A stretch of 64,000 nucleotides of DNA. Origin: Vicinamibacteria bacterium (GTDB lineage Bacteria; Acidobacteriota; Vicinamibacteria; Marinacidobacterales; Marinacidobacteraceae). Under the pieces are notes generated by a model. That model worked only from the letters and a program-made list of their open reading frames with translations, did not search any database and had not been told where the DNA came from. The DNA lies in NCBI GenBank assembly GCA_965199715.1, contig OZ241322.1, positions 1,280,001 through 1,344,000 of the forward strand. The letters run 5' to 3'. The number at the start of each line of letters is the position of its first letter. Positions within the stretch are counted from its first letter, which is position 1. Both the position numbers and the translations under genes were made by a program. Positions 3,841 through 19,179 of the stretch are shown piece by piece.

Positions 3841-5205
3841 CTATCCGAGGGCCTGCTTCGCCGCCTCGATCTGGGCGCGGACGGCGAGCGGCGCGGTTCC
3901 GCCCCGCGACGCGCGGCGCGCGGCGGAGCGGGCGTAGTCCCAGACTTCGGCCACGTCCGGCCCGAAGGCGTCCGAGAAGCCGCGCAGCGTCGGGAGGTCG
4001 AGGTCCGGCGGCGCGATTCCCGACGCCTCGGAGTGGGCGAAGACTTCGCCGGCGACCCGGTGCGCGTCCCGGAAGGGCACGCCGCGCTCGACGAGGTACT
4101 CGGCGAGGTCGGTGGCCAGCAGATCCCACGAGAGCGCCGCACGCATCCGGTCGGGCCTGACCTTCAGCGTGCGGATCGCGCCGGCGGCCACCGGGAGCGC
4201 GAGGAGCAGCGTGTCCAGCGTGTCGAAGCAGGGTTCCTTGTCCTCCTGCAGGTCGCGCTGGTAGCCGCCCGCGAGGCCCTTCCCCACGGTCAGGAGCGCG
4301 ACGAGGTTGCCGGTGAGCCGCCCCGACTTGCCGCGGATCAGCTCGAAGCCGTCCGGATTGCGCTTTTGCGGCATGAGGCTGGATCCGGTGGACCAGGCGT
4401 CGTCGAGCCGCACGAACCCGAACTCGGCGGAGGACCAGAGCACCAGATCCTCGGCGAGGCGCGAGAGATGCACCCCGAGGATCGCGCCGGCGGCGAGGAA
4501 CTCCATCGCATAGTCGCGGGTTCCCACCGCGTCCACGCTGTTCTCGAGCACGTCGGGGAAGCCGAGCTCGCCCGCGATCGCGACCCGGTTCACCGGGTAC
4601 GGATTGCCGGCGAGCGCGCCCGCGCCCATCGGCGAGACCGCGGCCCGCGCGGCCGCTGCCACGAGGCGGTCGCGATCCCGGGTCAGCGGCCAGAAGTGGG
4701 CGAGCAGCAGGTGCCCGAAGACCACCGGCTGCGCGCGCTGGAGATGCGTGTAGCCGGGAACCAGCGTGGCGTGGGTCTCCTCGGCGCGGACGAGGAGCGC
4801 CTCCCGCAGGCCGTCGAGCGATTCGAGGAGCGATTCGACCGCGTCGGCGAGGTGGAGCCGGAATCCCGTCTGCGAGAGGTCGTTCCGGCTGCGCCCGGTG
4901 GGGAGCTTGCGCGCCAGCTCGCCGATCTCCTCGAGAAGCAGGCGCTCGACGGCGGTGTGGACGTCCTCGTCGGCGAGCTCGAGCGGCCGGTCGGCGGCGA
5001 GCCGCTCGCCCACCCGGTCGAGGCCGGCGAGCATGCGCTCGAGCTCGTTGTCCGACAACACCGAGACGTCGGCGAGCGCCCGCGCGTAGGCGCGGTTCAC
5101 GCGGATCTCCTCGGCGTGCAGGCGGCGGTCGAACCCGATCGAGACCCCGAGCCGGTCGAGGGCGTCCGCGGGAGGCGCGGCGAAGCGCCCGCCCCAGAGC
5201 TTCAC
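3841..5205 (-). CDS. argH: Argininosuccinate lyase
   Basis: KLWGGRF N-terminus, GRSRND, PGYTHLQRAQP and the GSSLMPQKRNPD signature. The GTG start overlaps the argG stop. Confidence 0.97.
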   Translation of the reverse strand: MKLWGGRFAAPPADALDRLGVSIGFDRRLHAEEIRVNRAYARALADVSVLSDNELERMLAGLDRVGERLAADRPLELADEDVHTAVERLLLEEIGELARKLPTGRSRNDLSQTGFRLHLADAVESLLESLDGLREALLVRAEETHATLVPGYTHLQRAQPVVFGHLLLAHFWPLTRDRDRLVAAAARAAVSPMGAGALAGNPYPVNRVAIAGELGFPDVLENSVDAVGTRDYAMEFLAAGAILGVHLSRLAEDLVLWSSAEFGFVRLDDAWSTGSSLMPQKRNPDGFELIRGKSGRLTGNLVALLTVGKGLAGGYQRDLQEDKEPCFDTLDTLLLALPVAAGAIRTLKVRPDRMRAALSWDLLATDLAEYLVERGVPFRDAHRVAGEVFAHSEASGIAPPDLDLPTLRGFSDAFGPDVAEVWDYARSAARRASRGGTAPLAVRAQIEAAKQALG

Positions 5206-6407
5206 GAGCCGTCCGGCGGCCGCGAGAGCGCGCGGATCCGCTCGGGCAGGCCGAACAACCGGATGAACCCCTCGGCGTCGGCCTGGCGGTACACCTCGTC
5301 TTCGCCGAACGTGGCGAAGTCCTCGCGGTACAGCGTCTTCGGGCTGCGGCGGCCAGTGGCGCGGGCGACGCCCCGAAAGAGCTCCACCCGCGCGTCGCCG
5401 GTGGTGTTCCGGTGCGCCTCGGCGAAAAACGCGTCGAGCGCCTCGCGCAGCGCCGAGAACCACTTGCCGTCATAGACCAGCTCGGCGTAGCGCAGCGCCG
5501 CCGAAGCGGCGAAGTGGGACGTGGCCCGGTCGAGGGTGATGCTCTGAAGCGCCGCTCGCGCCTCGTGGAGGATGGTTCCGCCGGGAGTCTCGTACACGCC
5601 GCGCGACTTCATGCCGACGAGGCGGTTCTCGACGATATCCACCCGCCCGACGCCGTGCCGGGCGCCGGCCTCGTTGAGGCGCTCGAGCAGCGCCGCCGGA
5701 GACAGGCGCTCGCCGTCCACCGAGACCGGAATCCCGGCCTCGAAGCCGACGACGACCGACTCCGCCTCCGGCTCGACCCGGTCCTGGTTGCGGGTGATCC
5801 GGTAGAGGCTGTCGGGCGGCGCGTTCCACGGATCCTCGAGATCCTCGCCCTCGTGGCTGAGGTGGAAGAGGTTCTGGTCGCGGCTGTAGAGGTCGCCCGT
5901 CTTCTGCTCCACCGGGACGCCGTGCTTGTGCGCGTATGCGAGGGCGTCCTCCCGCGAGCGGACGCCCCACATCCGCCACGGCGCGATGACCTCGAGGTCG
6001 GGAGCGAGCGCCGCGAACGCCAGCTCGAACCGGACCTGGTCGTTCCCCTTCCCGGTGCAGCCGTGGGCGACCGCGTCGGCCCCCTCGCGCCGCGCGATCT
6101 CCACCTGCCGCTTCGCGATGACCGGGCGGGCGAGCGACGTCCCGAGGAGATAGACGCCCTCATAGACGGCTCCGGCGCGGACCGCCGGATAGACGTAGTC
6201 GCGGACAAACTCGTCGCGGATGTCCTCCACGAAGACCGCCGACGCGCCCGACGCGATGGCCTTCGTGGAGGCGGCTTGCAGGTCTTCGTTCTGGCCGACG
6301 TCGGCGATGACGGCGAGGACTTCGGCGTCGTAGCGCTCCTTCAGCCAGGGGATGGCGCAGGACGTGTCCAGACCGCCGGAATACGCAAGGGCGATGCGGT
6401 GGGGCAT
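5202..6407 (-). CDS. argG: Argininosuccinate synthase
   Basis: LAYSGGLDTS, HGCTGKGNDQVRFE and ENRLVGMKSRGVYETPGG motifs. Confidence 0.98.
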   Translation of the reverse strand: MPHRIALAYSGGLDTSCAIPWLKERYDAEVLAVIADVGQNEDLQAASTKAIASGASAVFVEDIRDEFVRDYVYPAVRAGAVYEGVYLLGTSLARPVIAKRQVEIARREGADAVAHGCTGKGNDQVRFELAFAALAPDLEVIAPWRMWGVRSREDALAYAHKHGVPVEQKTGDLYSRDQNLFHLSHEGEDLEDPWNAPPDSLYRITRNQDRVEPEAESVVVGFEAGIPVSVDGERLSPAALLERLNEAGARHGVGRVDIVENRLVGMKSRGVYETPGGTILHEARAALQSITLDRATSHFAASAALRYAELVYDGKWFSALREALDAFFAEAHRNTTGDARVELFRGVARATGRRSPKTLYREDFATFGEDEVYRQADAEGFIRLFGLPERIRALSRPPDGS

Positions 6408-6430
6408 GGAGCGCGGAGAATAGCCGCCCC

Positions 6431-7168
6431 GTGCCCCTGGATTCCGAGCGCCCCGACGACGAGGCGGAGGACTTCCCCGAGTACGCGATGCTCCCCGAAA
6501 CCGGGGAGGAGCGCTTCCAGGATCCGATCTACGGGCGCCGCGTGATCGGGACCCTCCTGTCGCGAAAGCCCCGCGCCGGAGCGAGGGCCGCGGTCGGGTG
6601 GACGCTCGGGATCCTGCTCGGCGTGAGCCTTCTCTACTGGCACGGCCCGGCGGAGGTCGCGGCGCTGCTTCCGGCGAGCGGCGAGACGGTGCTGGAGCGG
6701 GGGGAGACCTGGCGCTTGCTGACGGCGCTGGGGGCGCACGCGGACTTCCTGCACTTCCTTTCCAACTCGGTGTTCCTGACGTGGCTCGTGTACGTGTCCT
6801 ACGGGGCGTTCGGCCCGAGCCTGTATCCGCTCGCCGTGGTTCCGGTCTCGGCGCTCGCGATGGCGATCACCATCGAGGGGTACGCCCCGGGGATCCGGCT
6901 CGTGGGCGCGTCGGGGATGGTGTACGCGCTCGCCGGAGCGTGGCTGACGCTGTTCGCGCTGGTGGAGCGACGGCTCGGCGTGGTCCAGCGGTTGATCCGG
7001 GCGGTCGGCTTCTTCTTGGTCGTGCTGGTGCCGACCTCGATCCGGCCCGAGGTGAGCTACCGCGCCCACGCGATCGGGTTCTTCCTCGGCGTCTGCCTCG
7101 CGCTTGCGTACTTCCTCGCCCGCCGGGACGCGATCCGCGGGGCGGAGCGTTGGGAGTGGGACTCCTGA
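6431..7168 (+). CDS. Rhomboid-family intramembrane serine protease
   Basis: WRLLTA, HADFLHFLSN, catalytic GASG and AHAIGF motifs, with multiple TM segments. Confidence 0.9.
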   Translation: MPLDSERPDDEAEDFPEYAMLPETGEERFQDPIYGRRVIGTLLSRKPRAGARAAVGWTLGILLGVSLLYWHGPAEVAALLPASGETVLERGETWRLLTALGAHADFLHFLSNSVFLTWLVYVSYGAFGPSLYPLAVVPVSALAMAITIEGYAPGIRLVGASGMVYALAGAWLTLFALVERRLGVVQRLIRAVGFFLVVLVPTSIRPEVSYRAHAIGFFLGVCLALAYFLARRDAIRGAERWEWDS

Positions 7169-7175
7169 GCGGCGT

Positions 7176-7829
7176 TCAGCCGGCCGCGATCCGGTTCAGC
7201 ACCGCAACCCGCTCGGACACCTTCCCGAAGAGGCGCGCGAGCCCCGCCCGGGCCACCCGCGTGTCGCGGAACGCGTCGGCCTGCTGGACCGCCGGGAGGA
7301 GGCCGCCGCCCGACGGCGCCGGCGCGAGCAGCGCCTCCAGCTCGGCGAGGCTCATGGAGCCCTCTCCGGCCGCCGCCCACGCGGTCTCGATGTGGGCCCG
7401 GACCCGGTCGGGGCTCCGGCCGCGGAAATGCAGCAGCGCGAGCGGATCGTCGGCGAAGCTGGCGGCGACGGCGCGGACCGCGGTGGCGGCCCCTTCCTCG
7501 TCGGCGGCCCGGGTCTCGACCGAGCGCGCCGGAGGCGCGAGGCGCACGCCTCGGGCCGCGAGCAGTTGCCGCCCGTCCCGGGGCAGGTAGCCGGCGAGAA
7601 GCGCCGCCGGGAGGAGCGCCTGCTCCTCGAGCAGGCGATAGAACGCGTCCCACTGGTCGTCCCGAAGCGCCGGCGCGCGCACCGTGGCGCGGGTCCGGCG
7701 GAAACCGCGACCCTCCACGTGGACCTCGGCGAGCCCCGGCTGGATCGTCACCGCGCCCCGCGAAGAACCGCCGGGGAGGGTGCGGGCCGCGCGCAGGAAG
7801 TCGTCCGCCCACCAGGGGAGGTCCGTCAT
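7176..7829 (-). CDS. SWIM-family-like partner of the SNF2 helicase, lacking the Cys/His zinc ligands
   Basis: MTDLPWWADDFL...VTIQPGLAEVHVEG...LPAALLAGYLP...FADDPLALLHFRG resembles the SWIM proteins that follow SNF2 genes. Its ATG overlaps the SNF2 stop (ATGA). Confidence 0.7.
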   Translation of the reverse strand: MTDLPWWADDFLRAARTLPGGSSRGAVTIQPGLAEVHVEGRGFRRTRATVRAPALRDDQWDAFYRLLEEQALLPAALLAGYLPRDGRQLLAARGVRLAPPARSVETRAADEEGAATAVRAVAASFADDPLALLHFRGRSPDRVRAHIETAWAAAGEGSMSLAELEALLAPAPSGGGLLPAVQQADAFRDTRVARAGLARLFGKVSERVAVLNRIAAG

Positions 7830-10735
7830 TCGCCCACCGCTTGGTCCCCGAGCGTCATGAGATCGCGGAAGGCGTCGGCCGAAAGCGACGCGAGCCAGCT
7901 CTCGCCGCCGCCGATGACCGAGTCGGCGAGCGCCGACTTGCGCTCCAGCATGTCGGCGATCCGCTCTTCGAGGGTGCCGACGCAGATGAATTTGTGGACG
8001 AGCACGGTCTGGCGCTGCCCGATGCGGAAGGCGCGGTCGGTGGCCTGGTTCTCGACGCCCGGATTCCACCAGCGGTCGTAGTGGATCACGTGGTTGGCGC
8101 GGGTCAGGTTCAGCCCGTAGCCGCCGGTGCGCAGCGAGACGACGAGCACTTCCGGCGGGTCGGGGGCCTCCTGGAACTCGGTCACGATGGCGTCCCGGTC
8201 GGCGGCCGACACGCCGCCGTGCAGCACGGGCGTCCGGGCGCCCCGGACTTCGGCGAGGTGGGACGCGAGCAGCTTCGCCATCTCGGCGAACTGGGTGAAC
8301 ACGAGCGCCCGCTCGCCGCGCTCGCGCACCTCGTCGAGGATTTCCAGAAGGCGCGCCAGCTTCCCCGAGCGGCCGCCGAGCGAGCCTCCGCGCTGCAGGA
8401 AGTTCTCGGGGTGGTTGCAGATCTGCTTCAGCCGGGTGAGCGTCCGCAGCACCTCGCCCCGCCGGGCGAAGCCGGCGCGCTTCTCGAAGCGCGCGAGGCT
8501 CTGGGTCATCTCGGCCCGGTACAGCGCCCCCTGCTCGGCGGTCAGGGTGCAATACACCCGCGCCTGGTGCCGTTCGGGAAGGTCCCGGATCACCGTGGGA
8601 TCCGTCTTGACCCGGCGGAGGATGAACGGACGCACCAGCCGCCGCAGCGTGGACGTGGACTCCGGGTCCTGATCTCCCTCGACGGCGACCGCGAACGTCC
8701 GGCGGAAACTGCGCTCCGGCCCGAGGAGGCCGGGGTTCAGGAATTCCATGATCGACCAGAGGTCGGTGAGCCGGTTCTCGAGCGGGGTTCCGGTGAGCGC
8801 GATCCGCACGGGGGCCTCGAGCCGCCGCACGGCCCGGGTCTGCTTCGCGGCCGGGTTCTTCAGGTTGTGCGCCTCGTCCACGACGACCCCGCCCCAGCGC
8901 ACTCCCTGGAGCATCTCGAGGTCGCGGTGGGCGATGCCGAACGAACAGAGCACGAGGTCGGCCCCAGCGGCCGCCTCGAGGAACGCCTCGCCCCGCAGGC
9001 GCCCCGGACCCTGGTGCGCGTGGAGGCGGAGCGAGGGGGCGAAGCGCTGCGACTCCTTGCGCCAGTTGGCGATGAGCGAGGAGGGGCACACCAGCAGGTA
9101 GGGCTGGTCGAGCCGCCCGGCTTCCTGCTCGCCGAGAAGGAAGGTGAGCGCCTGGCAGGTCTTGCCGAGGCCCATGTCGTCGGCGAGGCAGCTTCCCAGC
9201 CCGAAGTCGGCGAGAAGCCGCAGCCAGCGGTACCCCACGCGCTGGTACGGGCGGAGCTTGGTCTTGAGACCGGTCGGCGACTCGAGAAGGTCGAGCTGGC
9301 TCGCGCTGGCCTCCAGCGCCTCGAAGAGACGCTCGAGCCCGCCCTCGCCCTCGACCTGCGACCGCACCGACTCGGCGCCGTCGAAGAGCCCGGGCGCCGC
9401 GTGGCTCATGGCGAGCCGGGCGCGAAGGACGTCGCGCAGCTCGGGCTCCGACCCGGTCTGCTGGCGCCGGCGGGAAGCCTCGCGCAGCAGCTCGCTGACC
9501 GAGTCCGACTCGAGGTCCATCCACTCGTCGCGGATCCGGATGAGCCGGCGCTTTCCGCGCATGAGCCGCTGGAACTCGGCCAGGGTGATCCGCTCGTCCC
9601 CGATGGCGACGTGCCAGTCGCACGACATCAGGGAGTCCAGCGAAAGGGCGCGAGCGCCGCCGGCCGAGCCCGACGCCGCACGGGCGGTCATGACGAGGCG
9701 AGGTCTTCGGGGCGGCCCGGTCAGTTGGGTCGGCACCCGCACGTGGAAGCCGGCCGCCTCCAGCGCTTCCCGGTCCCGATGCAGGAAGCTGTAGGCCTCC
9801 GCCGGATCGAGGTCGGCGGCCCCGGGCGCCAGGGCCCCGAGGCCGCGCTCGAGCGGCGGGCAGATCCGCGCCGCGCGCCCGAGCTCGCGCAGCAGGAACA
9901 CGACCGGATTCGCCACGCCGAACCGCCACAGGTTCTCCGACGGGTCGGCCGAGTCCCAGACCTCCGCGAGCGGCGCCTCCTCACCCGCGGCGAAGGCCGA
10001 AAAGCGCACCGACCAGCGGGCTTCGTCGCCGCTCGGTTCGCCCAGCTCCAGCAGCAATCCGAGCGGCGGAGCGGCCGACGGCGCGTCCCCGGCGAGCCGG
10101 AAGGCCGCCCGGGCGCGCTCCGCCGAGCGGGCGTCGCGGCTCCGCGGCGTCTCCGGACGGTCGGCGAAAAGCGAGCGCAACACGTCCTCCACGGCGGCGG
10201 GCTGGACGCTGCGGCGGAAACTCCCCACGAGCGACGACCAGCCGAGCCGGCGGCCGGCGTCGCGGACCACGGCGTCGGTGACCGAGCCGAACCACGCCGG
10301 GATGGCCGCCTCGGGGTCGCCGCCCGCGAGCGCCCCCGGGGGAGCGGCGAGGCACAGCGCCTCCAGTTCGCGCCGGCAGGACTCCACGTCGGCGAGCCAC
10401 ATCGGCGCGACGCCGTTTCCGTAGGACGGGAAAAACCGGCCGCGCGCCAGAAGCCGCAGCAGGAACCGGTTGGCGAGCGTCCAGAAGCGCAGCGAATCGG
10501 CGATGTCGCCGTTGCCGGCCACGGCGGCGAGCGCGCCCGCGGCGGGAAGCGGCGCAAGGGTCACGCCTTCGACCGGCTCCTCGCCGACGGCGACGATCCG
10601 CGTCGCGGCGTCGGGATCGTCGGGCCACTTGCCGCCGGTCCAGAAGCGGATGCGCGCGCCGACCTCCGACGCCGGGATCCCGGGCGCCCAGAAATGCATG
10701 GCGGCGGGCGGAACGAGAGTGGCGCGGAGCTGCAC
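7826..10735 (-). CDS. SNF2/Swi2-family ATP-dependent helicase
   Basis: LRPYQ, LADDMGLGKT, VDEAHNLKN, LTGTPLENRL, RLKQICNHP, GLNLTRANHVIHYDRWWNP and ATDRAFRIGQ motifs. Confidence 0.96.
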   Translation of the reverse strand: MQLRATLVPPAAMHFWAPGIPASEVGARIRFWTGGKWPDDPDAATRIVAVGEEPVEGVTLAPLPAAGALAAVAGNGDIADSLRFWTLANRFLLRLLARGRFFPSYGNGVAPMWLADVESCRRELEALCLAAPPGALAGGDPEAAIPAWFGSVTDAVVRDAGRRLGWSSLVGSFRRSVQPAAVEDVLRSLFADRPETPRSRDARSAERARAAFRLAGDAPSAAPPLGLLLELGEPSGDEARWSVRFSAFAAGEEAPLAEVWDSADPSENLWRFGVANPVVFLLRELGRAARICPPLERGLGALAPGAADLDPAEAYSFLHRDREALEAAGFHVRVPTQLTGPPRRPRLVMTARAASGSAGGARALSLDSLMSCDWHVAIGDERITLAEFQRLMRGKRRLIRIRDEWMDLESDSVSELLREASRRRQQTGSEPELRDVLRARLAMSHAAPGLFDGAESVRSQVEGEGGLERLFEALEASASQLDLLESPTGLKTKLRPYQRVGYRWLRLLADFGLGSCLADDMGLGKTCQALTFLLGEQEAGRLDQPYLLVCPSSLIANWRKESQRFAPSLRLHAHQGPGRLRGEAFLEAAAGADLVLCSFGIAHRDLEMLQGVRWGGVVVDEAHNLKNPAAKQTRAVRRLEAPVRIALTGTPLENRLTDLWSIMEFLNPGLLGPERSFRRTFAVAVEGDQDPESTSTLRRLVRPFILRRVKTDPTVIRDLPERHQARVYCTLTAEQGALYRAEMTQSLARFEKRAGFARRGEVLRTLTRLKQICNHPENFLQRGGSLGGRSGKLARLLEILDEVRERGERALVFTQFAEMAKLLASHLAEVRGARTPVLHGGVSAADRDAIVTEFQEAPDPPEVLVVSLRTGGYGLNLTRANHVIHYDRWWNPGVENQATDRAFRIGQRQTVLVHKFICVGTLEERIADMLERKSALADSVIGGGESWLASLSADAFRDLMTLGDQAVGE

Positions 10736-10798: not shown

Positions 10799-11677
10799 TC
10801 AGGGCCGGAAGCGGAAGGTCCCCACGATCGGGCAGTGGTCCGAGAGCGTGTCCGCGAATTCGGGCGGCGCGCCGAAGAGCACCTCCACGACCGGACCGGC
10901 CTCGGCGCGGCCGCCGGGCGGCGCGAACGCCACGAGGTGGTCGATGTGCCACGGGAAGCGGCTGTCCCAGCACGAGGGCTTGCTGCCCGGAGGAGGGACG
11001 ATCACGGGGTCGAAGGGCAGCCCCGCCGCGACCTCGTCCTCCGGACGCGAGATGCGCCGATTCCAGTCCCCGGCGACGACCAGGGGGACTCCCTCGGCCA
11101 TGCGCTCGTGGAGCCATCCCGTCAGGATCGCGATCTGCATCCGCAGGAAGCCGCAGCGGTTGCCGCCGCTCGAGAGCGGACGGTCGTTGCAGCCCGACTG
11201 GAAGTGGACCCCGAGGACGCGCACCCGCTCCTCGCCCCGGGTCAGGGTCAGGTCCACGCCGTGGCGGTCGCGCCCCTGGGGCGACCACTCCACCACGTCC
11301 GGGTGGCGCTCGGCGGACCAGCCGCTGTCGCGCCGGACGACGATCGCGGTGCTCTGGGCCCACGCCGGGACGGTGTCGCGGGTCGAGAAGTGGAGATCCC
11401 AGTCCTCCGCCGGGAAGAGCAGCCGGGCGGCGGCCTCGTTCTCGATCTCCTGCAGGCTCACGACCTCCACTTCGAGCGCGGCGAGCTGCGCGACCACGGC
11501 GCGCAGGCGGCCGAACTCCTCCTCGCCGCGCAAATGCCGCCCATCGTCGTTGCCGGTGAGGGCCCGGTCGCCGACGCCGTCGCCGAACCAGGCGATGTTC
11601 CACGTCGCCGCGACGAGGCTGGTCCCGGCCGCCGCGGGCGCCGCGAATGCGATGGCGGCGATGAGGATTCGGGGCAT
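10799..11677 (-). CDS. Secreted endonuclease/exonuclease/phosphatase (EEP) family protein
   Basis: Signal peptide plus ATWNI, SLQEI, AGDWN, IDH and SDHCP motifs. Start placed at the ATG at 11677, 7 nt after a TAGCAT -10; the alternative start is 11683. Confidence 0.9.
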   Translation of the reverse strand: MPRILIAAIAFAAPAAAGTSLVAATWNIAWFGDGVGDRALTGNDDGRHLRGEEEFGRLRAVVAQLAALEVEVVSLQEIENEAAARLLFPAEDWDLHFSTRDTVPAWAQSTAIVVRRDSGWSAERHPDVVEWSPQGRDRHGVDLTLTRGEERVRVLGVHFQSGCNDRPLSSGGNRCGFLRMQIAILTGWLHERMAEGVPLVVAGDWNRRISRPEDEVAAGLPFDPVIVPPPGSKPSCWDSRFPWHIDHLVAFAPPGGRAEAGPVVEVLFGAPPEFADTLSDHCPIVGTFRFRP

Positions 11678-11772
11678 CTTCATGATGCTAGCCGGGCGGG
11701 GCGACAGATTCAGACGCGCCCGGGGGGGGCCGGGCGGGAGGCGCCCCGCAGACTGGTAGCATCCCGAAACTC

Positions 11773-12522
11773 GTGTCGGGACACAGCAAGTGGCATTCGA
11801 TCCGCCACAAGAAGGCCATCGTGGACGCGAAACGCGGCAAGGCCTTCACCCGGCTGCTCAAGGAAGTCACCATGGCGGCGCGGCTCCACGGGCGGGACCT
11901 CCAGTTCAACCCGCGGCTGCGGCTCGCGGTCGACAAGGCCAAGGCGGGCAACGTCCCCCGCGACAGCATCGAGCGGGCGATCAAGAAGGGAACCGGCGAG
12001 CTGGAGGGCTTCCAGCTCGAGGACGCGAACTACGAGGGCTACGGGCCGGCGGGCGTCGCGGTCTTCGTGGAGGCCGCCACCGACAACCGGAACCGGACCG
12101 TGAGCGACGTGCGCCACCTGTTCTCCAAGTACGGGGGGAACCTCGGCGAGTCGGGGTCGGTGGGGTGGATGTTCGTGAAGGCCGGGCAGTTTCTCGTGGC
12201 CAAGGAGGACGTGGACGAGGACGAGCTGATCGAGCTGGCGCTCGCCCACGGCGCCGACGACGTGCTGGACGACGACGCGCACTGGGACGTGCGCACGCCG
12301 CCCGAGGCGTTCGAGGCGGTGCGCTCGGCGCTGGGCGAGCAGGGCGTCGCGTGCGCCCACGCGGGGGTCGAGCTCATTCCGAACCAGCACGTGCGCGTCG
12401 CGGGCGCCGACGCCCGGCGCGTCCTGCGGCTGATGGAGGCGCTGGAGGATCAGGAGGACGTGACCCAGGTCTGGGCCAACTTCGAGCTGGACGACGAGGA
12501 GCTCGAGGCCGCCGCCCGGTGA
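11773..12522 (+). CDS. yebC: YebC/PmpR family protein
   Basis: SGHSKWHSIRHKK, YEGYGPAG and TDNRNRT motifs, in the canonical position upstream of ruvC. Confidence 0.97.
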   Translation: MSGHSKWHSIRHKKAIVDAKRGKAFTRLLKEVTMAARLHGRDLQFNPRLRLAVDKAKAGNVPRDSIERAIKKGTGELEGFQLEDANYEGYGPAGVAVFVEAATDNRNRTVSDVRHLFSKYGGNLGESGSVGWMFVKAGQFLVAKEDVDEDELIELALAHGADDVLDDDAHWDVRTPPEAFEAVRSALGEQGVACAHAGVELIPNQHVRVAGADARRVLRLMEALEDQEDVTQVWANFELDDEELEAAAR

Positions 12523-13043
12523 CCGGCGGTCACCTGGTGCTCGGGCTGGACCCGGGTTCGCGCGTGACCGGCTGGGGGGCGGTTTCCGACCATGACGGGA
12601 GGCTCGAAGTCCGGGGGCACGGGGCGGTGCGGCTTCCGGCGAACGCGCCGCTGCCGCTGCGGATGAGCCGGCTCCACGGCGAGGTCCGGGCGCTGGCCGA
12701 GCGGCTCGAGCCCGACGAGGTCGCGGTGGAGGCGGTGTTCGCGGCGAGGAACGCGCGCACCGCGCTGGTCCTCGGGCACGCGCGGGGCGCGCTTCTGGCC
12801 GCCGTCGGCGAGCGCCCCTGCCACGAGTACCCGGCCCGCTCGGTGAAGCAGGCGCTGACCGGCTTCGGCGGCGCCGAAAAGGATCCGGTCGGGGCGATGG
12901 TGGCCCGGCGGCTCGGCCTCGCCGAAATCCCCGAACCGCGGGACGCCACCGACGCCCTCGCGGTCGCGATCTGCCACCTCGACGCCCGCCGGGCGCGGGT
13001 GCGGCTGGACCGCGCCCGCACGCTCGCAGTCTCCGCGCCGTGA
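12519..13043 (+). CDS. ruvC: Holliday junction resolvase RuvC
   Basis: LGLDPG, VAVEAVF, LGHARG, VKQALTGFGGAEK and DATDALAVAICH motifs; GTGA overlap with yebC. Confidence 0.95.
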   Translation: MTGGHLVLGLDPGSRVTGWGAVSDHDGRLEVRGHGAVRLPANAPLPLRMSRLHGEVRALAERLEPDEVAVEAVFAARNARTALVLGHARGALLAAVGERPCHEYPARSVKQALTGFGGAEKDPVGAMVARRLGLAEIPEPRDATDALAVAICHLDARRARVRLDRARTLAVSAP

Positions 13044-13633
13044 TCGAGAGCCTTTCGGGGACCGTGCGCCGCGTCGCCGAGGGCGGGCTGTCGCTCGAGG
13101 TCGGCGGCGTGGGGTTCGCCCTGCGGGCGTCCGCGGCGACCGTCGCCGGGCTCCCGCCGGTGGGCAGCCCGGCGACGCTCGCCACCCGGCTGCTGACGCC
13201 CCGGGAGGACGCCCCGGCGCTGTACGGCTTCGCCACCGAGGAGGAGGCCGGGCTGTTCGACCAGATCCGCTCGATCAGCGGCGTGGGTCCCGCGGTCGCG
13301 CTCCAGCTTCTCGCCATCGGGGCCTCCACCCTGCGCGAGGGGGTCCGGTCGCGGGACGTGAAGCTGCTGTGCGCGGCGCGGGGCGTCGGGCCGAAGCTGG
13401 CCCGCCGGCTCATCGCCGAGCTGGCCGACGCGCTGCCGGAACCGGACGAGGCGCCCGCGGGCAAGGCGGCCGATCCCGAGCGCGAACGGCTCGTGTCGGC
13501 GTTCCTGAACCTCCAGTTCGCCGACCGGCGCCGGGTGGAGGCGGTGGCCGACGAGATCGTCGCCGCGATGCCGGACGCGGACCTCGCCTCCAGGCTCCGG
13601 GTCGGTCTCTCCAAGCTGACCGGACGCGGCTGA
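13040..13633 (+). CDS. ruvA: Holliday junction DNA-binding protein RuvA
   Basis: LEVGGVGF, REDAPALYGF and the HhH motifs SGVGP and RGVGPKLARR. Confidence 0.94.
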   Translation: MIESLSGTVRRVAEGGLSLEVGGVGFALRASAATVAGLPPVGSPATLATRLLTPREDAPALYGFATEEEAGLFDQIRSISGVGPAVALQLLAIGASTLREGVRSRDVKLLCAARGVGPKLARRLIAELADALPEPDEAPAGKAADPERERLVSAFLNLQFADRRRVEAVADEIVAAMPDADLASRLRVGLSKLTGRG

Positions 13634-15687
13634 TGGTCTCCGCCAACACCGTCCTCGACCGGATTCGCGGCCGTCTGGACCGGACGGAGGCGGTGATGCG
13701 GCGGGTGACGTGGATCTCGCGGCTTCGCATCGCGGTCGCCGCCGCGGGCGCGCTCGTGGTCGCCGCCGCGTTCGATGGGAACCTCGCGGCGGAGTGGATC
13801 GCGGCTCCCGTCCTCGTCTTCGTCGTTCTCGCGATCCTCCACGAGCGGTACATCCAGCAGGCGCTCCGCAACCAGCGGGTGGTGCGGTTCCACCGGCGCA
13901 CGCTCGAGCGCATGGAGGCGGACGTCTCGGGCGACCAGGAGCGGCCCCGCTCTCCGGGGGCGGCGCTGCGCCGGAAGGGGGTCCCGGGACGGGAGGACCT
14001 CGAAGAGGCGGAGCTGCTGGCGGCGCGGCGGGACCGGGTCGGCGAGATTGGCGGCGGCCGGATCGCGGGCGCGCGGCTGGACGAGCACCTCGGGCTCTTC
14101 GGAAGCGCGGAGCTCTTCGACCGGGTGGGCGACCATCGCACCGACGCCGGGGGCGAGACGCTCGCGTCGTGGATGCTGCGTCCCGCCGACCCTCGCGAGT
14201 GCCGGCTGCGGCAGGAGGCGATCCAGGAACTCTCCCCCCGGATGGACCTCCGCGAGGCGGTCGCCGCGACCGGGAGCCAGTCCCGGTGGCCGGCCCGGAG
14301 CGGAGCGCTGTCGCTGTGGACCCGCCATTCCGCGGGCGCTCCCGACTGCGGCGAGGCACGGGCGTGGCGGGAGGCGGAGGAGACCGGAACGGTCGGTCCG
14401 GTCGCCGAGGCCGAAGGGGAGCCGGCGGACCCGCCCCGGACGATCCCGCAGATCCCGTCGCCGGGCCATGCCCGGACGATCGGCGCGCTGATCGGCGCGC
14501 TCGGCCTCGGCAACGCGCTCGGGGTCACGGCGTGGGTCGCCGGAATCGCCGGCCCCTCGCCGCTCGCGCTCAGCCTCATGCTCTCGGTGCTGGCCGGGCT
14601 TCTGACGCGGCGGCTGGTGCGGGACACCGACGTGACGCTCGGCAGCCTCGTCATGGAGGGAGACGGCCTGCGGCGGATGGCCGCGATCCTCCGCGAGGGC
14701 GAGTTCGAGTCCGAGCTGCTCGCCCGGCTGCGGGAGGACATCCGCGACGCCGCCGGACCGCTGCGCCGGCTGGAGCGCATCCGGTCGCTGTTCGCGGTGC
14801 GGCGGAACCTGATGTTCGCGCCGGTCGCGGCCCCGCTGTTCTGGGGGACGTGCTTCGCGCTCGCGCTCGCGGGCTGGCGCCGCCGCTTCGAGCCCGAGCT
14901 GGCGCGCTGGAGCGCCGCGTCGGGCGCGTTCGACGCGCTGCTGGGACTGGCCCAGTACGCCGACGAGCGGCCCGGGGACGAATACGCCGAATACGACGAG
15001 GAGCCGGGGCTGGCCGCGGTGAACCTCGGCCACCCGCTGGTCCCGCGCGAGCGGCTCGCCCGCAACTCGATCACGCTGGGGCGCGGGGACGCGGACTTCC
15101 TGATCGTGACCGGCTCCAACATGTCGGGCAAGAGCACCCTGCTGCGCGCCATCGGCGCCAACTTCGTGCTCGCCCGGCTCGGGGCGCCGGTGACCGCGTC
15201 GCGCTTCCGGATCGGCCGCCTCGCACTCGGGCCGTCGATCTCCAGTCGGGACTCGTTGCGCGACGGCGTGTCCCGATTCCTCGCCGAGCTGTTCGCGCTG
15301 CGGGCGGTGCTGGACGCGGGGGCCGCCGACGCGCCGCTGCTGTGCCTGCTGGACGAGGTGCTCGAGGGCACGAATTCCTCGGACCGGCGGGTCGCCGTGC
15401 GGGCGCTGCTCGAGGAGCTGGGCCGGCGCGGCGCCGTCGGCGTCCTGACCACGCACGACGTCTCGCTGACCGAACTCGCCCGGGAGCTGCCGGGGCGCAT
15501 CCGGAACATGCACTTCACCGAGGAGATCCGCGACGGCTCCATGCGGTTCGACTTCCGGCTGCGCGACGGGGTGCTCCCGAGGGGGAACGCGCTCGAACTC
15601 ATGAAGATGCTGAATCTCCCGGCGCCGGGGAACGAGGGCGCCGACTACACCGCGCTTCCCGATTCGGTGTCCGGCAAGGAGAACTGA
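13633..15687 (+). CDS. Membrane-anchored MutS-family (domain V) ATPase
   Basis: Hydrophobic N-terminal and central segments. GHPL, Walker A TGSNMSGKSTLLR, DSLRDGVSRFLAEL, Walker B LLDEVLEGTNS and TTHD motifs. No mismatch-binding domain I is recognisable. Confidence 0.88.
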   Translation: MVSANTVLDRIRGRLDRTEAVMRRVTWISRLRIAVAAAGALVVAAAFDGNLAAEWIAAPVLVFVVLAILHERYIQQALRNQRVVRFHRRTLERMEADVSGDQERPRSPGAALRRKGVPGREDLEEAELLAARRDRVGEIGGGRIAGARLDEHLGLFGSAELFDRVGDHRTDAGGETLASWMLRPADPRECRLRQEAIQELSPRMDLREAVAATGSQSRWPARSGALSLWTRHSAGAPDCGEARAWREAEETGTVGPVAEAEGEPADPPRTIPQIPSPGHARTIGALIGALGLGNALGVTAWVAGIAGPSPLALSLMLSVLAGLLTRRLVRDTDVTLGSLVMEGDGLRRMAAILREGEFESELLARLREDIRDAAGPLRRLERIRSLFAVRRNLMFAPVAAPLFWGTCFALALAGWRRRFEPELARWSAASGAFDALLGLAQYADERPGDEYAEYDEEPGLAAVNLGHPLVPRERLARNSITLGRGDADFLIVTGSNMSGKSTLLRAIGANFVLARLGAPVTASRFRIGRLALGPSISSRDSLRDGVSRFLAELFALRAVLDAGAADAPLLCLLDEVLEGTNSSDRRVAVRALLEELGRRGAVGVLTTHDVSLTELARELPGRIRNMHFTEEIRDGSMRFDFRLRDGVLPRGNALELMKMLNLPAPGNEGADYTALPDSVSGKEN

Positions 15688-16661
15688 TGGGCCCCCGGCC
15701 GGACGAGGAGTTTCACCGAACCCTTCGTCCGGTCTCGTTCGCCGACTACGTCGGGCAGCGCGCCGTCCTCGACCAGTTGGAGATCAGCGTCCGCGCGGCG
15801 ACCGGACGCGACGAGCCGATGGACCACGTGCTGCTCCACGGGCCGCCCGGACTCGGGAAGACCTCGCTCGGAGCGGTGCTCGCCCACGAGCTGGGGGCCC
15901 GGATGCACTCGTCCTCGGGGCCGCTCATTCCCCGGACCGGGGACATGGTCGCGCTGCTGAACGTCCAGCAGCCGGGCGACATCCTCTTCGTGGACGAGAT
16001 CCACCGGCTGGGGCCGGCGGTCGCCGAGGTGCTCTATCCGGCGATGGAGGACCGGTTCGTGGACGTCATGGTCGGCGAGAAGCTCGCGGCCCAGTCGCTG
16101 CGGCTGAACCTCGCGCCGTTCACGCTGGTCGGGGCGACCACCCGGCCGGACCTGCTTCCGGGGCCGCTGCGCGACCGGTTTCCGCTGGTCCACCAGCTTG
16201 AGTTCTACGCGAACGAGGAGATCGAGCGGGTGCTGCGGCGGTCCGCCGGCGTGCTGGGCGCCGATCTCCGGGAGGGCGCGGTCCGCGAGATCGCCGCCCG
16301 CTCCCGGGGCACGCCGAGGGTCGCGAACAACCTGCTCCGCCAGGTGCGCGACTTCGCCGAGGTGCGCGGCGAGGGGGTCATCGACCGCAACGCGGCGCAA
16401 GGCGCGCTGGAGCTCGCCCGGATCGACGACCGGGGCCTCGATCGGTTCGATCGGAAGATCCTCGAGAGCCTTTGCGACAACTTCGCCGGCGGGCCGGTCG
16501 GCGTCGCGAGCCTCGCCGCCACGCTTGGAATGGACCCGAGGACGCTCGAGGAGGTGCGCGAGCCGTTCCTGATCTATCGCGGATTCATGCAGCGCACCGC
16601 GAGAGGGCGGGTGGCGACGGAACGGGGGCGCCGGCACGTGGGGAGAACCGCGCCCATCTGA
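15687..16661 (+). CDS. ruvB: Holliday junction branch-migration ATPase RuvB
   Basis: LRPVSFADYVGQ, GPPGLGKT, FVDEIHRL, LYPAMED, GATTR, LRDRF, RSRGTPR and GGPVG motifs. Confidence 0.96.
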   Translation: MGPRPDEEFHRTLRPVSFADYVGQRAVLDQLEISVRAATGRDEPMDHVLLHGPPGLGKTSLGAVLAHELGARMHSSSGPLIPRTGDMVALLNVQQPGDILFVDEIHRLGPAVAEVLYPAMEDRFVDVMVGEKLAAQSLRLNLAPFTLVGATTRPDLLPGPLRDRFPLVHQLEFYANEEIERVLRRSAGVLGADLREGAVREIAARSRGTPRVANNLLRQVRDFAEVRGEGVIDRNAAQGALELARIDDRGLDRFDRKILESLCDNFAGGPVGVASLAATLGMDPRTLEEVREPFLIYRGFMQRTARGRVATERGRRHVGRTAPI

Positions 16662-16663
16662 AC

Positions 16664-17662
16664 GTGCGGACCTCGGACTTTCGCTTCGAGCTGCCCGACG
16701 AGCTGATCGCGCAGCGTCCGGCCCAAAGGCGCGACGGCTCGCGCCTCCTCCACCTGCGCTCCGACGGGAGCGTCGAGCACCGCCGTTTCGCCGACCTGCC
16801 GGCGCTGCTGCGCCCCGGAGACCTGCTGGTCCGCAACGACACGCGGGTCTTTCCCGCCCGGATGCGGCTGCGCAAACCTACCGGGGGCCGGGTGGAGCTG
16901 CTCGCGCTCCCGGGCGGACGGACGTTCGAGGCGCTGGTCCGCCCGGCGGCGCGCCCCGGACTCCGGCTCGAGGCGCCGGGGGTCCGGCTGGAGGTGGAGG
17001 CGCGGGACGGCCCGCGCCATCGAATCCGCATCCTCGAGGGAGCCGAGGACGTCTTCGGGCTCGCCGAGCGCATGGGCGAAACCCCGCTGCCGCCCTACAT
17101 CCGCCGCCCCGCTGGCGAGGCGGACGGGGATCGGGAGCGCTACCAGACGGTGTACGCCCGGCAAGAGGGATCGGTGGCGGCCCCGACCGCGGGACTCCAC
17201 TTCTCGAAACCGCTGTTCGGGCGGCTCCGGGAGCGGGGCGTCGGAGTCGCCGACCTGACGCTGCACGTCGGCTACGGAACCTTCGCGCCGGTCCGCACCG
17301 AAGATCCTCGTGAGCACAAGCTGGACCCCGAGCTCTACGAGGTTCCCCCACCGACCCGCCAGGCGCTCGCCGGAGCCGGGCGGGTCGTCGCGGTCGGAAC
17401 CACCTCGGCGCGCGTCTTGGAGACGCTCGGAGCCGGCGGCCCCGACTCCGGGATGGCGGACCTGCTCATCCTGCCCGGGCACGAGTTTCGGGTCGTGGAC
17501 GCGCTGGTCACGAACTTCCACCTTCCCGAGAGTTCGCTTCTGATGCTGGTTTCGGCATTCGCGGGCCGGGAGGCGGTACTTCGCGCCTACCGGGAGGCGG
17601 TCCGCGCGCGCTATCGATTCCACTCCTACGGGGACGCGATGCTCGTCGAGCAGACGCGTTGA
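16664..17662 (+). CDS. queA: S-adenosylmethionine:tRNA ribosyltransferase-isomerase
   Basis: DFRFELPDELIAQRP, NDTRVFPAR, PLPPYI, RYQTVYA, AAPTAGLHF, TNFHLPES and SYGDAM motifs. Confidence 0.97.
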   Translation: MRTSDFRFELPDELIAQRPAQRRDGSRLLHLRSDGSVEHRRFADLPALLRPGDLLVRNDTRVFPARMRLRKPTGGRVELLALPGGRTFEALVRPAARPGLRLEAPGVRLEVEARDGPRHRIRILEGAEDVFGLAERMGETPLPPYIRRPAGEADGDRERYQTVYARQEGSVAAPTAGLHFSKPLFGRLRERGVGVADLTLHVGYGTFAPVRTEDPREHKLDPELYEVPPPTRQALAGAGRVVAVGTTSARVLETLGAGGPDSGMADLLILPGHEFRVVDALVTNFHLPESSLLMLVSAFAGREAVLRAYREAVRARYRFHSYGDAMLVEQTR

Positions 17663-17749: not shown

Positions 17750-18694
17750 TCACGGTGAAGAGGACGGCTGCCCGACAAGACGAATTGACGCCGTCCTGCC
17801 CACCTCGGGATCGACGTACACGATTTGGGCGATCATGCCGGCCTCGATGGGCGACCGCTCGGAGAGCACCCGCGCCTTCGAGAACCGCGCTTCGGCGCTC
17901 GTGACCGCGATTCGGGCGACGAGCTCCTCCTCGCTGCCGAGGAACTCGCCGGTGGCGGGATCGGTGAAGGACTCGCCCTCGGAGTGCACGTGGAGCGTGT
18001 CGCCGTCGAGGAGCAGCCCGTCGCCGTAGTTCAGGATGATCTCGCCGGCGCCGGTCCGCGCCGCGACCCGGATCGGATAGACGCTGGAGACCACCATGAA
18101 GGTGATGTCGCGGGCGGCCATCCGCATGACGTTGCCGAGAAGCTGCGCGACGTCGTGCTTCACCCGCGCCCCGACGCCCTCGAGCGCGAAGCCCCGCGAG
18201 CCGTCCGCCTCGACGGCGACGCTCTCGGCGATGGCGGTCGTGCCGTTCTCGGCGTCGAGGATGCGGATATCGACCGCCATGTTCGCCTTCTTCTTCGCGG
18301 CTCCGAAGCCGCCGAATCCGGCGACCTCCGCGGTCATGCCGTACTGGGTGATCGCGCCGATCACGACGTGGCCGAGCCCGGAGAGGTGGAGGTTCGAGGA
18401 TCCGTCGGTGAGGCCGAAGCCGCCCATGCCCTGTTCGCCGAGGATCGCCTCCATGCGGTCGCGCTCGATCACGCGGAACTTCTGCGTCTTCACGAGCGCG
18501 GTAGTGAGCATGTCGATGAACGCTCTCGTGTCCTCCCGGAGGCCCCGTCCGAAGGCCGAGAACGCCTTGTCCCGGTCCGAATCGGGGGCGAGGTACTCGA
18601 TGTCCCCGACGCCGATGCGGATCCGCTCGGGGGCCGCGTCCTGCGCCAGGGCCAGTCCGGGGACCAGCACCAACGTTGCGATGAGTGGTTTCAT
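17750..18694 (-). CDS. CsgG/HfaB-family exported protein with a probable FlgT-like C-terminal domain
   Basis: Signal peptide; LTTALVKTQKFRVIERDRMEAILGEQ, GAITQYG and AVDIRILDAENG (CsgG-like); C-terminal DPATGEFLGSEE. Confidence 0.75.
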   Translation of the reverse strand: MKPLIATLVLVPGLALAQDAAPERIRIGVGDIEYLAPDSDRDKAFSAFGRGLREDTRAFIDMLTTALVKTQKFRVIERDRMEAILGEQGMGGFGLTDGSSNLHLSGLGHVVIGAITQYGMTAEVAGFGGFGAAKKKANMAVDIRILDAENGTTAIAESVAVEADGSRGFALEGVGARVKHDVAQLLGNVMRMAARDITFMVVSSVYPIRVAARTGAGEIILNYGDGLLLDGDTLHVHSEGESFTDPATGEFLGSEEELVARIAVTSAEARFSKARVLSERSPIEAGMIAQIVYVDPEVGRTASIRLVGQPSSSP

Positions 18695-18798
18695 GGGTCT
18701 CTCCCTGAATCGGGGCCCGTCGGGGCCGTTCGGTTTCGAGGGGAACCCAGGGGCGCAAGGCGTCACTTCCGGTCCCGACCGGCCCTAAAATCGACCCG

Positions 18799-19179
18799 AT
18801 GCGAAGAAGGGTGGACAGCGGGGTCGCGTGGGAGGCGGAGTACGCCTACAGCCGCGCCGTCCGGGTCGGGGACCGCATCCTCGTGTCCGGCACCACCGCG
18901 ACCGGCGCGGACGGTCCGGTCGCGCTCGGGGACGCGGCCGGACAGACCGACTTCGCGCTCGGGAAGATCCGCGACGCGCTCGCCGCGCTCGGCGGCTCGC
19001 TCGGGGACGTGGTGCGCACCCGGGTCCACGTCAAGCCGGGAGCGGACTGGCGGGCGGTCGCCGAGGTCCACGGGAAGTGGTTCCGCGACGTCCGGCCCGC
19101 GTGCACGCTGACCTTCGCCGAGCTGGTGGGCGAGGAGTACCTCGTGGAGATCGAGGTCGAGGCGGTGGTCTCGGCGTGA
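18799..19179 (+). CDS. Rid (YjgF/YER057c/UK114) family protein
   Basis: YSRAVRVGDRILVSGT, DVVRTRV, RPACT and LVEIEVEA motifs. Confidence 0.92.
   Translation: MRRRVDSGVAWEAEYAYSRAVRVGDRILVSGTTATGADGPVALGDAAGQTDFALGKIRDALAALGGSLGDVVRTRVHVKPGADWRAVAEVHGKWFRDVRPACTLTFAELVGEEYLVEIEVEAVVSA

Follow-up and report, generated by a model that had tools for sequence, protein, structure and literature searches.

A stretch of 64,000 nucleotides from a Vicinamibacteria bacterium of the order Marinacidobacterales (assembly GCA_965199715.1, contig OZ241322.1, positions 1,280,001 to 1,344,000 of the forward strand), here called the window, carries between ruvA and ruvB a mutS-like gene that, like its product, is referred to below as X. 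X is a real, conserved MutS-type ATPase, probably active and anchored in the membrane by two hairpins, and this part of the description is solid. Judged by its sequence, it is an integral-membrane member of a large and uncharacterised protein family that holds only MutS domains III and V and is similar to the proteins named 'MutS3'. The best reading of its history is a single arrival in the ruvA-ruvB interval, in the order's ancestor, and we give about even credence to the view that X has inherited this position while functioning autonomously, like the relatives that stand alone, without being an obligatory subunit of RuvAB. A tie to RuvAB, physical or functional, is possible. The original prediction for this DNA, which placed a membrane-anchored MutS-family ATPase in the ruv unit and gave it a possible part in RuvABC activity, is partly supported overall: the architecture and the operon membership are upheld, and the difficulties concern the functional claim on RuvABC.

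Domains, fold and predicted membrane hairpins of X

The gene (13633..15687; like all features of X and its cluster, on the + strand) encodes a protein of 684 amino acids (aa) whose sole Pfam domain is MutS_V, matched over residues 490-664 with 79.9 bits against a cut-off of 30.2, and the same domain is found in 34/34 orthologues. The domain V ATPase takes up residues ~460-664 (15010..15624), and its motifs are intact, as the original prediction had it. In an alignment of 64 relatives G494, S495, N496, M497, G499, K500 and S501 of the Walker A motif GSNMSGKST (residues 494-502, 15112..15138) and D574 and E575 of the Walker B motif LLDE (residues 572-575, 15346..15357) are invariant, and so are S547/F549 and H608/D609, which we take to be the conserved Ser-x-Phe and Thr-His motifs of the MutS family; given this invariance the ATPase is very probably active. 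Compared with PDB sequences by phmmer, the ATPase matches chains of MSH2, MutS and MutS2 at E ~1e-13, and a search of the ESM Atlas with X returned nothing but members of the X family, under the names 'hypothetical protein' or 'MutS domain V protein'.

Pfam finds in X no MutS domain I (PF01624), II (PF05188) or IV, no Smr nuclease (PF01713) and no KOW domain. The NCBIfam models of MutS1 (NF003810, 94.7 bits against a cut-off of 480; TIGR01070, 82.6 against 641.7) and MutS2 (TIGR01069, 67.9 against 400) are matched far below their cut-offs, and the KamC model is matched partially, at 69.6 bits, far under its cut-off. The absence of a mismatch-binding domain and of Smr had been correctly noted from the translation; what that inventory missed is the domain III-like core, which is present by fold and is recognised by Pfam MutS_III in 18/34 orthologues, the window's own X not among them. 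The N-terminal part of this core lies at residues ~150-231 (14080..14325), with G157, G173, L177, R193 and L200 invariant. A reading of X as part of a defence system was dropped, PADLOC having given P-loop-level matches only (E 4e-4 to 9e-3 over 28-41 residues).

A model of X built with AlphaFold2 on the 64-sequence alignment (predicted local distance difference test, pLDDT, 87.3; predicted template modelling score 0.88) has two long helical hairpins, at residues 4-47/53-98 and 277-302/309-355, after which further helices lead up to a 42-residue lever helix (404-445) and then to an alpha/beta ATPase domain (460-660). The top Foldseek matches of this model are all MutS/MSH chains, the best at E 4e-17. 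With VIA-align, residues 137-667 align with residues 169-789 of E. coli MutS (1w7a_B; Z 26.2, root-mean-square deviation 3.8 A, 402 residues), residues 144-671 with the core of T. thermophilus MutS2 (residues 1-488; 7vuf/7vuk, Z 23.9), and X likewise with B. subtilis MutS2 on collided ribosomes (7qv3_w, Z 23.9). These matches identify X as modelled, from residue ~135 on to ~670, as a core-lever-ATPase module of MutS kind, of the type seen in the MutS2 core; for residues 1-130 the MutS/MSH chains matched by Foldseek and VIA-align offer no counterpart.

The membrane anchor and the several hydrophobic segments that had been read from the translation are supported by hydropathy and by positive-inside flanks. 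In the window's protein the hydrophobic segments are centred at residues ~34-46, 55-66, 289-298, 304-321 and 401-407. When Kyte-Doolittle values over 19 residues were mapped on the 64-sequence family alignment, the family mean exceeded 1.2 at X residues 34-46, 55-66, 286-300 and 302-318, with a fifth, weaker element at ~402. The first predicted transmembrane hairpin pairs residues 28-47 with 55-70 across an outer loop of 7 residues (13714..13842), its hydropathy being kept in the 64 members, and the second comprises residues ~281-302 and 309-325 with a 6-residue outer loop (14467..14607); each coincides with one of the hairpins of the model. Across the family, lysine plus arginine amount to 3.1-4.3 per 15 residues in the flanks of the hairpins and to 0.4-0.5 in the 6-7-residue loops, which is the positive-inside pattern expected of two hairpins with the N-terminus inside and the remainder of the predicted protein in the cytoplasm. 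A third hydrophobic element, at residues 392-415 (14806..14877), has lysine or arginine on both sides, conserves F395, P397, W404, G405, T406, W415 and R416, and in the model begins the lever helix; it is probably interfacial or re-entrant.

By analogy with the biology of MutS, X would work as a dimer: with ATP its ATPase heads, in the cytoplasm, would close, and this would swing the long lever helices. Were the tips of the levers fixed in the membrane, such a machine could open and close a cytoplasmic chamber against the membrane's inner face. That its ligand might be DNA is a weak guess.

Set beside the core of MutS2 (T. thermophilus 7vuf/7vuk; B. subtilis 7qv3), X too starts at domain III and continues through levers to a domain V ATPase, and neither has the mismatch-binding and connector domains (phmmer of X against MutS2, E 9e-14). 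X differs in having neither the Smr nuclease nor KOW, in ending 20 residues past the ATPase, and in having an N-terminal predicted transmembrane hairpin and a second one at the probable place of the clamp; MutS2 is soluble, whereas X is, by its sequence, membrane-bound. With MutS1 and MSH2/3/6 X has the ATPase motifs, the core and the levers in common, but it is without the mismatch domain I, the connector domain II, the clamp domain IV and the C-terminal tetramerisation region, and its N-terminus is the putative hairpin, not a mismatch-binding domain. MutS2 and Msh4-Msh5 bind Holliday junctions, and both are soluble and retain the clamp; as MutS-family ATPases that act on recombination intermediates without mismatch recognition, they furnish the analogy from which the original prediction set out.

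The description that fits the X family in architecture and distribution is that of MutS3 (Lin, Nei and Ma, 2007; PMC2190696), the two being set together here by the published description and not by reference sequences. As far as the consulted part of that paper goes, MutS3 proteins are bacterial MutS paralogues with the ATPase near the C-terminus, some of them with the core domain, without domains I and II or Smr, patchily distributed in distant phyla (Myxococcus is listed) and of unknown function; in the same part of the text 'membrane' has 0 occurrences and no ruv context is given. In the literature searched, which left subscription-only papers outside reach, no account was found of a membrane-anchored MutS paralogue or of a gene lodged in the ruvA-ruvB interval; where PMC8525777 and PMC2780311 have the words 'between RuvA and RuvB', these stand in a cited title only. 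To have called X the best candidate for an undescribed system was nevertheless an overstatement, for it belongs to a large family that is already catalogued, though uncharacterised.

The ruv cluster and the history of the insertion

Six genes form one tightly packed cluster (11773-17662) in the order yebC-ruvC-ruvA-X-ruvB-queA. The first is yebC, of the TACO1/YebC family (11773..12522; Pfam PF01709, PF20772), followed by ruvC (12519..13043; Pfam RuvC, E 3e-38) and ruvA (13040..13633; 197 aa; Pfam RuvA_N and HHH_5, that is domains I and II; TIGR00084, 118 bits against a cut-off of 85); beyond X lie ruvB (15687..16661; Pfam RuvB_N, AAA_lid_4 and RuvB_C) and queA (16664..17662; Pfam Queuosine_synth, E 4e-114). 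The two TGATG overlaps on which the proposed coupling was based are exactly as claimed: at 13631-13635 the TGA that ends ruvA (13631-33) overlaps by one base the ATG that opens X (13633-35), and at 15685-15689 the X stop TGA and the ruvB start ATG share one A. Such overlaps are not peculiar to X, since all junctions of the cluster are tight: yebC and ruvC overlap by 4 nt (GTGA, 12519-22, with the yebC stop TGA at 12520-22 and the ruvC GTG at 12519), ruvC and ruvA do the same (GTGA, 13040-43), and the queA start, a GTG at 16664 (16658 is a CTG), stands 2 nt after the ruvB stop. The claim that the six genes make one unit thus holds as to packing; it does not extend to an overlap of queA, of which there is none.

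An X orthologue is present in 41/41 genomes of the window's genus, its family (f1) and the two other families of the same order (f2, f3), the window's own genome counted. Loci were inspected for 33 of the 40 relatives, and in every one (19/19 and 14/14, together 33/33 other genomes of the order, in three families) ruvA, X and ruvB follow one another in that order on one strand, with yebC and ruvC upstream and queA downstream in nearly all; among the seven other relatives, the coordinates in G025 give the same order. Gap sizes, taken from the coordinates of open reading frames (ORFs) with starts picked by script, vary between families. In the 22 other f1 genomes the ruvA-X gap is -4 to +16 nt in 21/22 and the X-ruvB gap -1 to +17 nt in 21/22. 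Among the 11 genomes of f2/f3 the ruvA-X gap is -1 to +26 nt in 9/11, and the X-ruvB gap is 27-294 nt in 8/11 and 2.3-2.9 kb in 3/11; at one of these three loci, L023, a 634-aa feoB-like GTPase/transporter gene (3853-5757, - strand) lies between X and ruvB. Gaps similar to that of L023 are seen in L024 and L027. At E<=1e-30, X is retained in 28/28 genomes of the order, against 33/53 (62%) in the class's other orders.

Outside the order the family is large, with 2,808 clusters (50% identity) matching at E<=1e-30, and these membrane proteins with MutS_III and MutS_V only are spread over Acidobacteriota, Gemmatimonadota, Myxococcota, Planctomycetota and others. In the sister orders none of 20 X loci, the 20 best-scoring of 33 genomes with X, has RuvA, RuvB, RuvC, YebC or QueA within ~3.4-4 kb. 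In a species-representative collection, from which the best 80 of at least 597 matches were taken (about ten with short flanks), the only locus in ruv context is L035, which belongs to f1; for the other taxa (Acidobacteriota, Gemmatimonadota, Myxococcota, Planctomycetota, Binatia and others) the count is 0/79. The original prediction had named, as what would speak against it, an arrangement restricted to this genome with orthologues in unrelated contexts: the arrangement is shared by 33/33 other genomes of the order, and beyond the order the orthologues do sit in unrelated contexts (0/20 and 0/79).

Clustering of the flanking ORFs of the 99 non-ruv loci revealed no conserved partner of X, the commonest neighbours being ECF sigma factors (10), sensor kinases (8), MacB/FtsX permeases (7) and QueG (5). 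Queuosine genes adjoin stand-alone relatives of X in 5/99 loci, which fall on two or three branches of the family's tree that are separate from one another. In other Acidobacteriota queG is directly downstream of the X-family gene (L051, 5473-6504; L072, 5662-6718; L101, about 5473-6504); queG is upstream in L057 (2438-3514), and queA directly upstream in L083 (2762-3778). In the window, by comparison with those loci, queA stands one gene beyond X.

The ancestral state is one in which ruvA and ruvB are adjacent, and X is a derived insertion, as follows from the sister orders: in 50 genomes with both genes, the ruvA and ruvB matches are <=684 nt apart in 49 and <=207 nt in 47 (distances counted by eye from two match tables). 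The exception is G041, 72% complete (C29:3-6578), with ~5.2 kb between ruvA and ruvB and the mutS-like gene on another contig. A quick tree (LG+G4) of 128 family members comprised the 34 ruv-embedded proteins and 94 others, leaving outside five of the 99 non-ruv loci, namely L047 with its 155-aa ORF and four without a usable ORF. Left free, this tree joins the f1 clade, on a stem of 0.75, to the non-ruv acidobacterial L062, L104 and L109, apart from f2/f3, which would suggest two separate insertions. This possibility was set aside because a tree constrained to hold the 34 ruv-embedded rows together is 37.5 log-likelihood units better and its single clade is not rejected by the approximately unbiased test (p-AU 0.742); long-branch attraction is likely to lie behind the placement of f1 in the free tree. 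A single origin is also the simpler reading given that the position of the insertion is identical throughout.

Inherited position or partnership with RuvAB

Under the reading that we favour, X came to lie between ruvA and ruvB on a single occasion, in the order's ancestor, and was then inherited in a rarely rearranging cluster, and as a consequence of that inheritance it would be co-transcribed with ruvA and ruvB, start/stop-coupled to both in f1. Autonomy of X is supported by the counts of ruv contexts outside the order (0/20 and 0/79), by the ordinary character of the f2/f3 proteins, by the feoB-like insertion in L023, by the absence of a steady companion (the commonest neighbour occurs in 10/99 loci only), by the queA and yebC junctions, which are equally tight, and by the stability of the ruvA-ruvB pair (49/50), within which any inserted gene would probably be retained. 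The f2/f3 ruv-embedded proteins have a median length of 599 aa against 601 for their relatives, at a mean identity of 44.9%, these relatives having been taken from a protein search irrespective of gene context. Adjacency to ruvA and ruvB does not accompany the X family wherever it occurs, being found in 33/33 genomes of the order and in 0/20 and 0/79 loci elsewhere. The same evidence tells against X as a tether or gate of RuvABC at the membrane, namely these counts, the abutting of ruvA and ruvB, with no X between them, in sister orders, the likeness of the f2/f3 proteins to stand-alone relatives in length and motifs, the interrupted L023 locus and the tight junctions that join queA and yebC as well. 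Prediction of a complex of X with RuvA from alignments scored 0.00 in two runs, amounting to 'no answer', and weighs neither way.

The window's own family departs from this ordinary type. The f1 proteins have a median length of 669 aa and are 35-38% identical to all others, and among the 2,808 clusters of the family (E<=1e-30) just three or four are of their long type. A first insert, at residues ~97-150 (13921..14082), is specific to f1 and conserved there, replacing the stretch with the family's usual W-G-G..H-YA motif; in the model its residues 101-117 have pLDDT <50 and 123-140 are helical. A second, f1 only, at residues ~232-276 (14326..14460), is acidic, Pro/Gly-rich and variable (pLDDT ~59-65). 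Both stretches had been described as low-complexity; this suits the second, which is variable and of lower model confidence, and does not suit the first, a conserved and partly helical insert. A C-terminal tail at residues 665-684 (15625..15684), disordered in the model (pLDDT <50 at 670-684), has the motif LP.P...(D/E)(Y/F)T(A/S)LP, which is kept in all 23 f1 proteins and missing from the 11 of f2/f3. RuvA domain III is the known RuvB-binding domain, and Pfam RuvA_C, which represents it, is matched in 0/23 f1 RuvA proteins against 11/11 of f2/f3; over RuvA residues ~150-197 the f1 proteins have NLQF.DRRR in place of the usual NLG(Y/F) motif of f2/f3. MutS2 (TIGR01069 above its cut-off) is present in 16/16 f2/f3 genomes (15/15 without the unpublished G033) and in 0/25 f1 genomes, where the model gives sub-threshold matches from a MutS1-type gene only. 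A full-length gene of the MutS1 type is present separately in the window's genome (G000:C1:318337-319842, within a frame of 980 aa).

An alternative that we hold to be unlikely, though still of some weight, is that X is a working partner of RuvAB(C) in this order: a membrane-anchored MutS-type clamp that would hold or recognise branched DNA, or load or limit RuvAB, and that in f1 would have co-evolved with RuvA and taken on anti-recombination duties after the loss of MutS2. Several observations speak for such a partnership and by the same token weigh against autonomy. The order ruvA-X-ruvB is fixed in 33/33 other genomes and has been held across order-level divergence, RuvB being ~51% identical, and conserved synteny over such divergence is classically taken as functional linkage. 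Complete retention of X in the order (28/28), compared with 33/53 elsewhere, might stem from a function that X took on in its ruv setting; yet the family lives alone outside it, and RuvA and RuvB are adjacent and working without X in the sister orders. On both sides of X the f1 junctions are very tight, with overlaps of one or four bases or gaps of a few bases, while in f2/f3 the X-ruvB junction is loose (27-294 nt, breaks of 2.3-2.9 kb in 3/11, the feoB-like gene in L023) and X itself is unchanged by the move. MutS2 and Msh4-Msh5 offer a precedent as Holliday-junction binders, but the DNA-contacting clamp domain of MutS is missing from X. The second predicted hairpin appears to sit where MutS has clamp domain IV; as this placement depends on the order of the elements (core, hairpin, lever, ATPase) and not on a residue-level superposition, we infer it, which tempers its value for the autonomous reading. 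Finally, in f1 the insert and tail of X coincide with the divergence of RuvA domain III and with genomes in which MutS2 was not found, and these features make a Ruv-linked role possible; they may simply be products of faster evolution and gene loss in small genomes (2.7-4.9 Mb in f1 against 3.3-9.2 Mb).

In its boldest form, which seems to us quite improbable, this alternative makes X a true third component of RuvAB in the order, an ATP-gated clamp holding recombination intermediates at the inner membrane that in f1 would have co-evolved, by way of its insert and tail, with the remodelled RuvA domain III and replaced the lost MutS2. If true, the large family of transmembrane MutS ('MutS3'-like) proteins would thereby receive its first assigned function, and no earlier case would be known of a Holliday-junction processing system tethered to the membrane.

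It is also improbable that X is an ABC-type mechanotransducer acting on a lipid, a membrane protein or a channel-like gate, in which the levers would drive an eight-helix membrane bundle of the dimer, no nucleic acid would be bound and the ruv position would be accidental. The four conserved transmembrane helices per chain with long helices to the ATPase, and the loss of the DNA clamp and mismatch domain, are what such a device would call for, and MutS-type ATPases with non-DNA roles exist, for example the NCBIfam KamC, named lysine 5,6-aminomutase reactivase ATPase, to which X has the partial match given above. ATPases of the MacB/FtsEX type can be said to work like X in the limited sense of an ABC-class dimer with long helices to a small helical membrane domain. 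They differ from it in that X has a MutS-type ATPase in a single chain, that its outer loops of just 6-7 residues leave no room for a periplasmic domain, and that X matches no ABC-transporter family beyond the P-loop. The occurrence of MacB/FtsX permeases near X relatives in 7/99 loci would suit a mechanotransducer but may be chance, as such permeases, like sensor kinases and ECF sigma factors, are common in the genomes concerned.

Very unlikely, lastly, is a translation-linked, MutS2-like ATPase that, anchored in the membrane, would detect or split ribosomes that have stalled or collided, with yebC and queA, and not ruv as such, as the meaningful association: YebC relieves ribosome stalling, both genes are in the window's cluster, queG or queA adjoins X relatives in the five loci on two or three branches, MutS2 was not found in f1, and the fold matches the MutS2 core and B. 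subtilis MutS2 in its complex with collided disomes (7vuk_A, 7qv3_w; Z 23.9), but X resembles MutS1 at least as closely (Z 26.2), X is without KOW and Smr, queuosine adjacency is confined to 5/99 loci, and ruvAB-queA linkage is common in bacteria without X. What probability remains is left to something else.

The membrane family with MutS_III and MutS_V only has no assigned function in the literature searched, and its gene is mostly a lone one without informative neighbours, so that the embedding between ruvA and ruvB is one of few contextual handles on the family. It yields a concrete, testable hypothesis of a genetic or physical link to Holliday-junction processing, and f1, in which X has gained an insert and a tail, RuvA domain III is altered and MutS2 was not found, provides a natural comparison. 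Should the Ruv link be true, a membrane-bound player would be added to recombination repair; should it be false, X would be a warning that conserved, translationally coupled synteny in a rearrangement-resistant operon can be purely historical.

Sequence reads and surroundings of the cluster

The interval 12900-16800 of the window occurs near-identically in DNA runs with the label 'sponge metagenome' and also in two metatranscriptomes from that study; this occurrence fits the sponge- or marine-associated relatives named in the family searches. Among contigs from the RNA libraries, X7 record 18 spans both yebC/ruvC and ruvC/ruvA and X6 record 9 spans yebC/ruvC only, the ruvA/X junction is bridged by X6 record 11 (13549-13836) and X7 record 19 (13289-13793), and X/ruvB is bridged by one contig, X6 record 14 (15065-16227); in RNA run X7 the depth is 0.12 over 15519-15719, so that X/ruvB has almost no cover there. 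These contigs are compatible with one transcript, as weak evidence, since an assembled contig does not prove one continuous molecule and the RNA libraries may contain carried-over DNA. Co-expression of X with ruvA and ruvB is likely.

ORFs on the minus strand at 13410-15602 and 11710-15513, which run across X, were judged to be shadow ORFs of high-GC DNA, because it is the + frame that holds the Pfam domain and all homologues. Upstream of yebC and divergent from it are genes for a 969-aa SNF2-family helicase with DUF3670 (7826-10735, - strand) and for a 294-aa endonuclease/exonuclease/phosphatase-family protein with a signal-like N-terminus (10799-11683, - strand). Convergent with queA is a gene for a CsgG-like lipoprotein (17750-18766, - strand), after which comes a RidA/L-PSP family gene (18799-19179, + strand). 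Within X, minority contigs have an extra C behind position 14872 (in DNA run X4, depth 46.5 of 259.6), which is also seen in one RNA-library contig, with loose ends at the same place; this extra C probably comes from a related strain or from another organism's contig.

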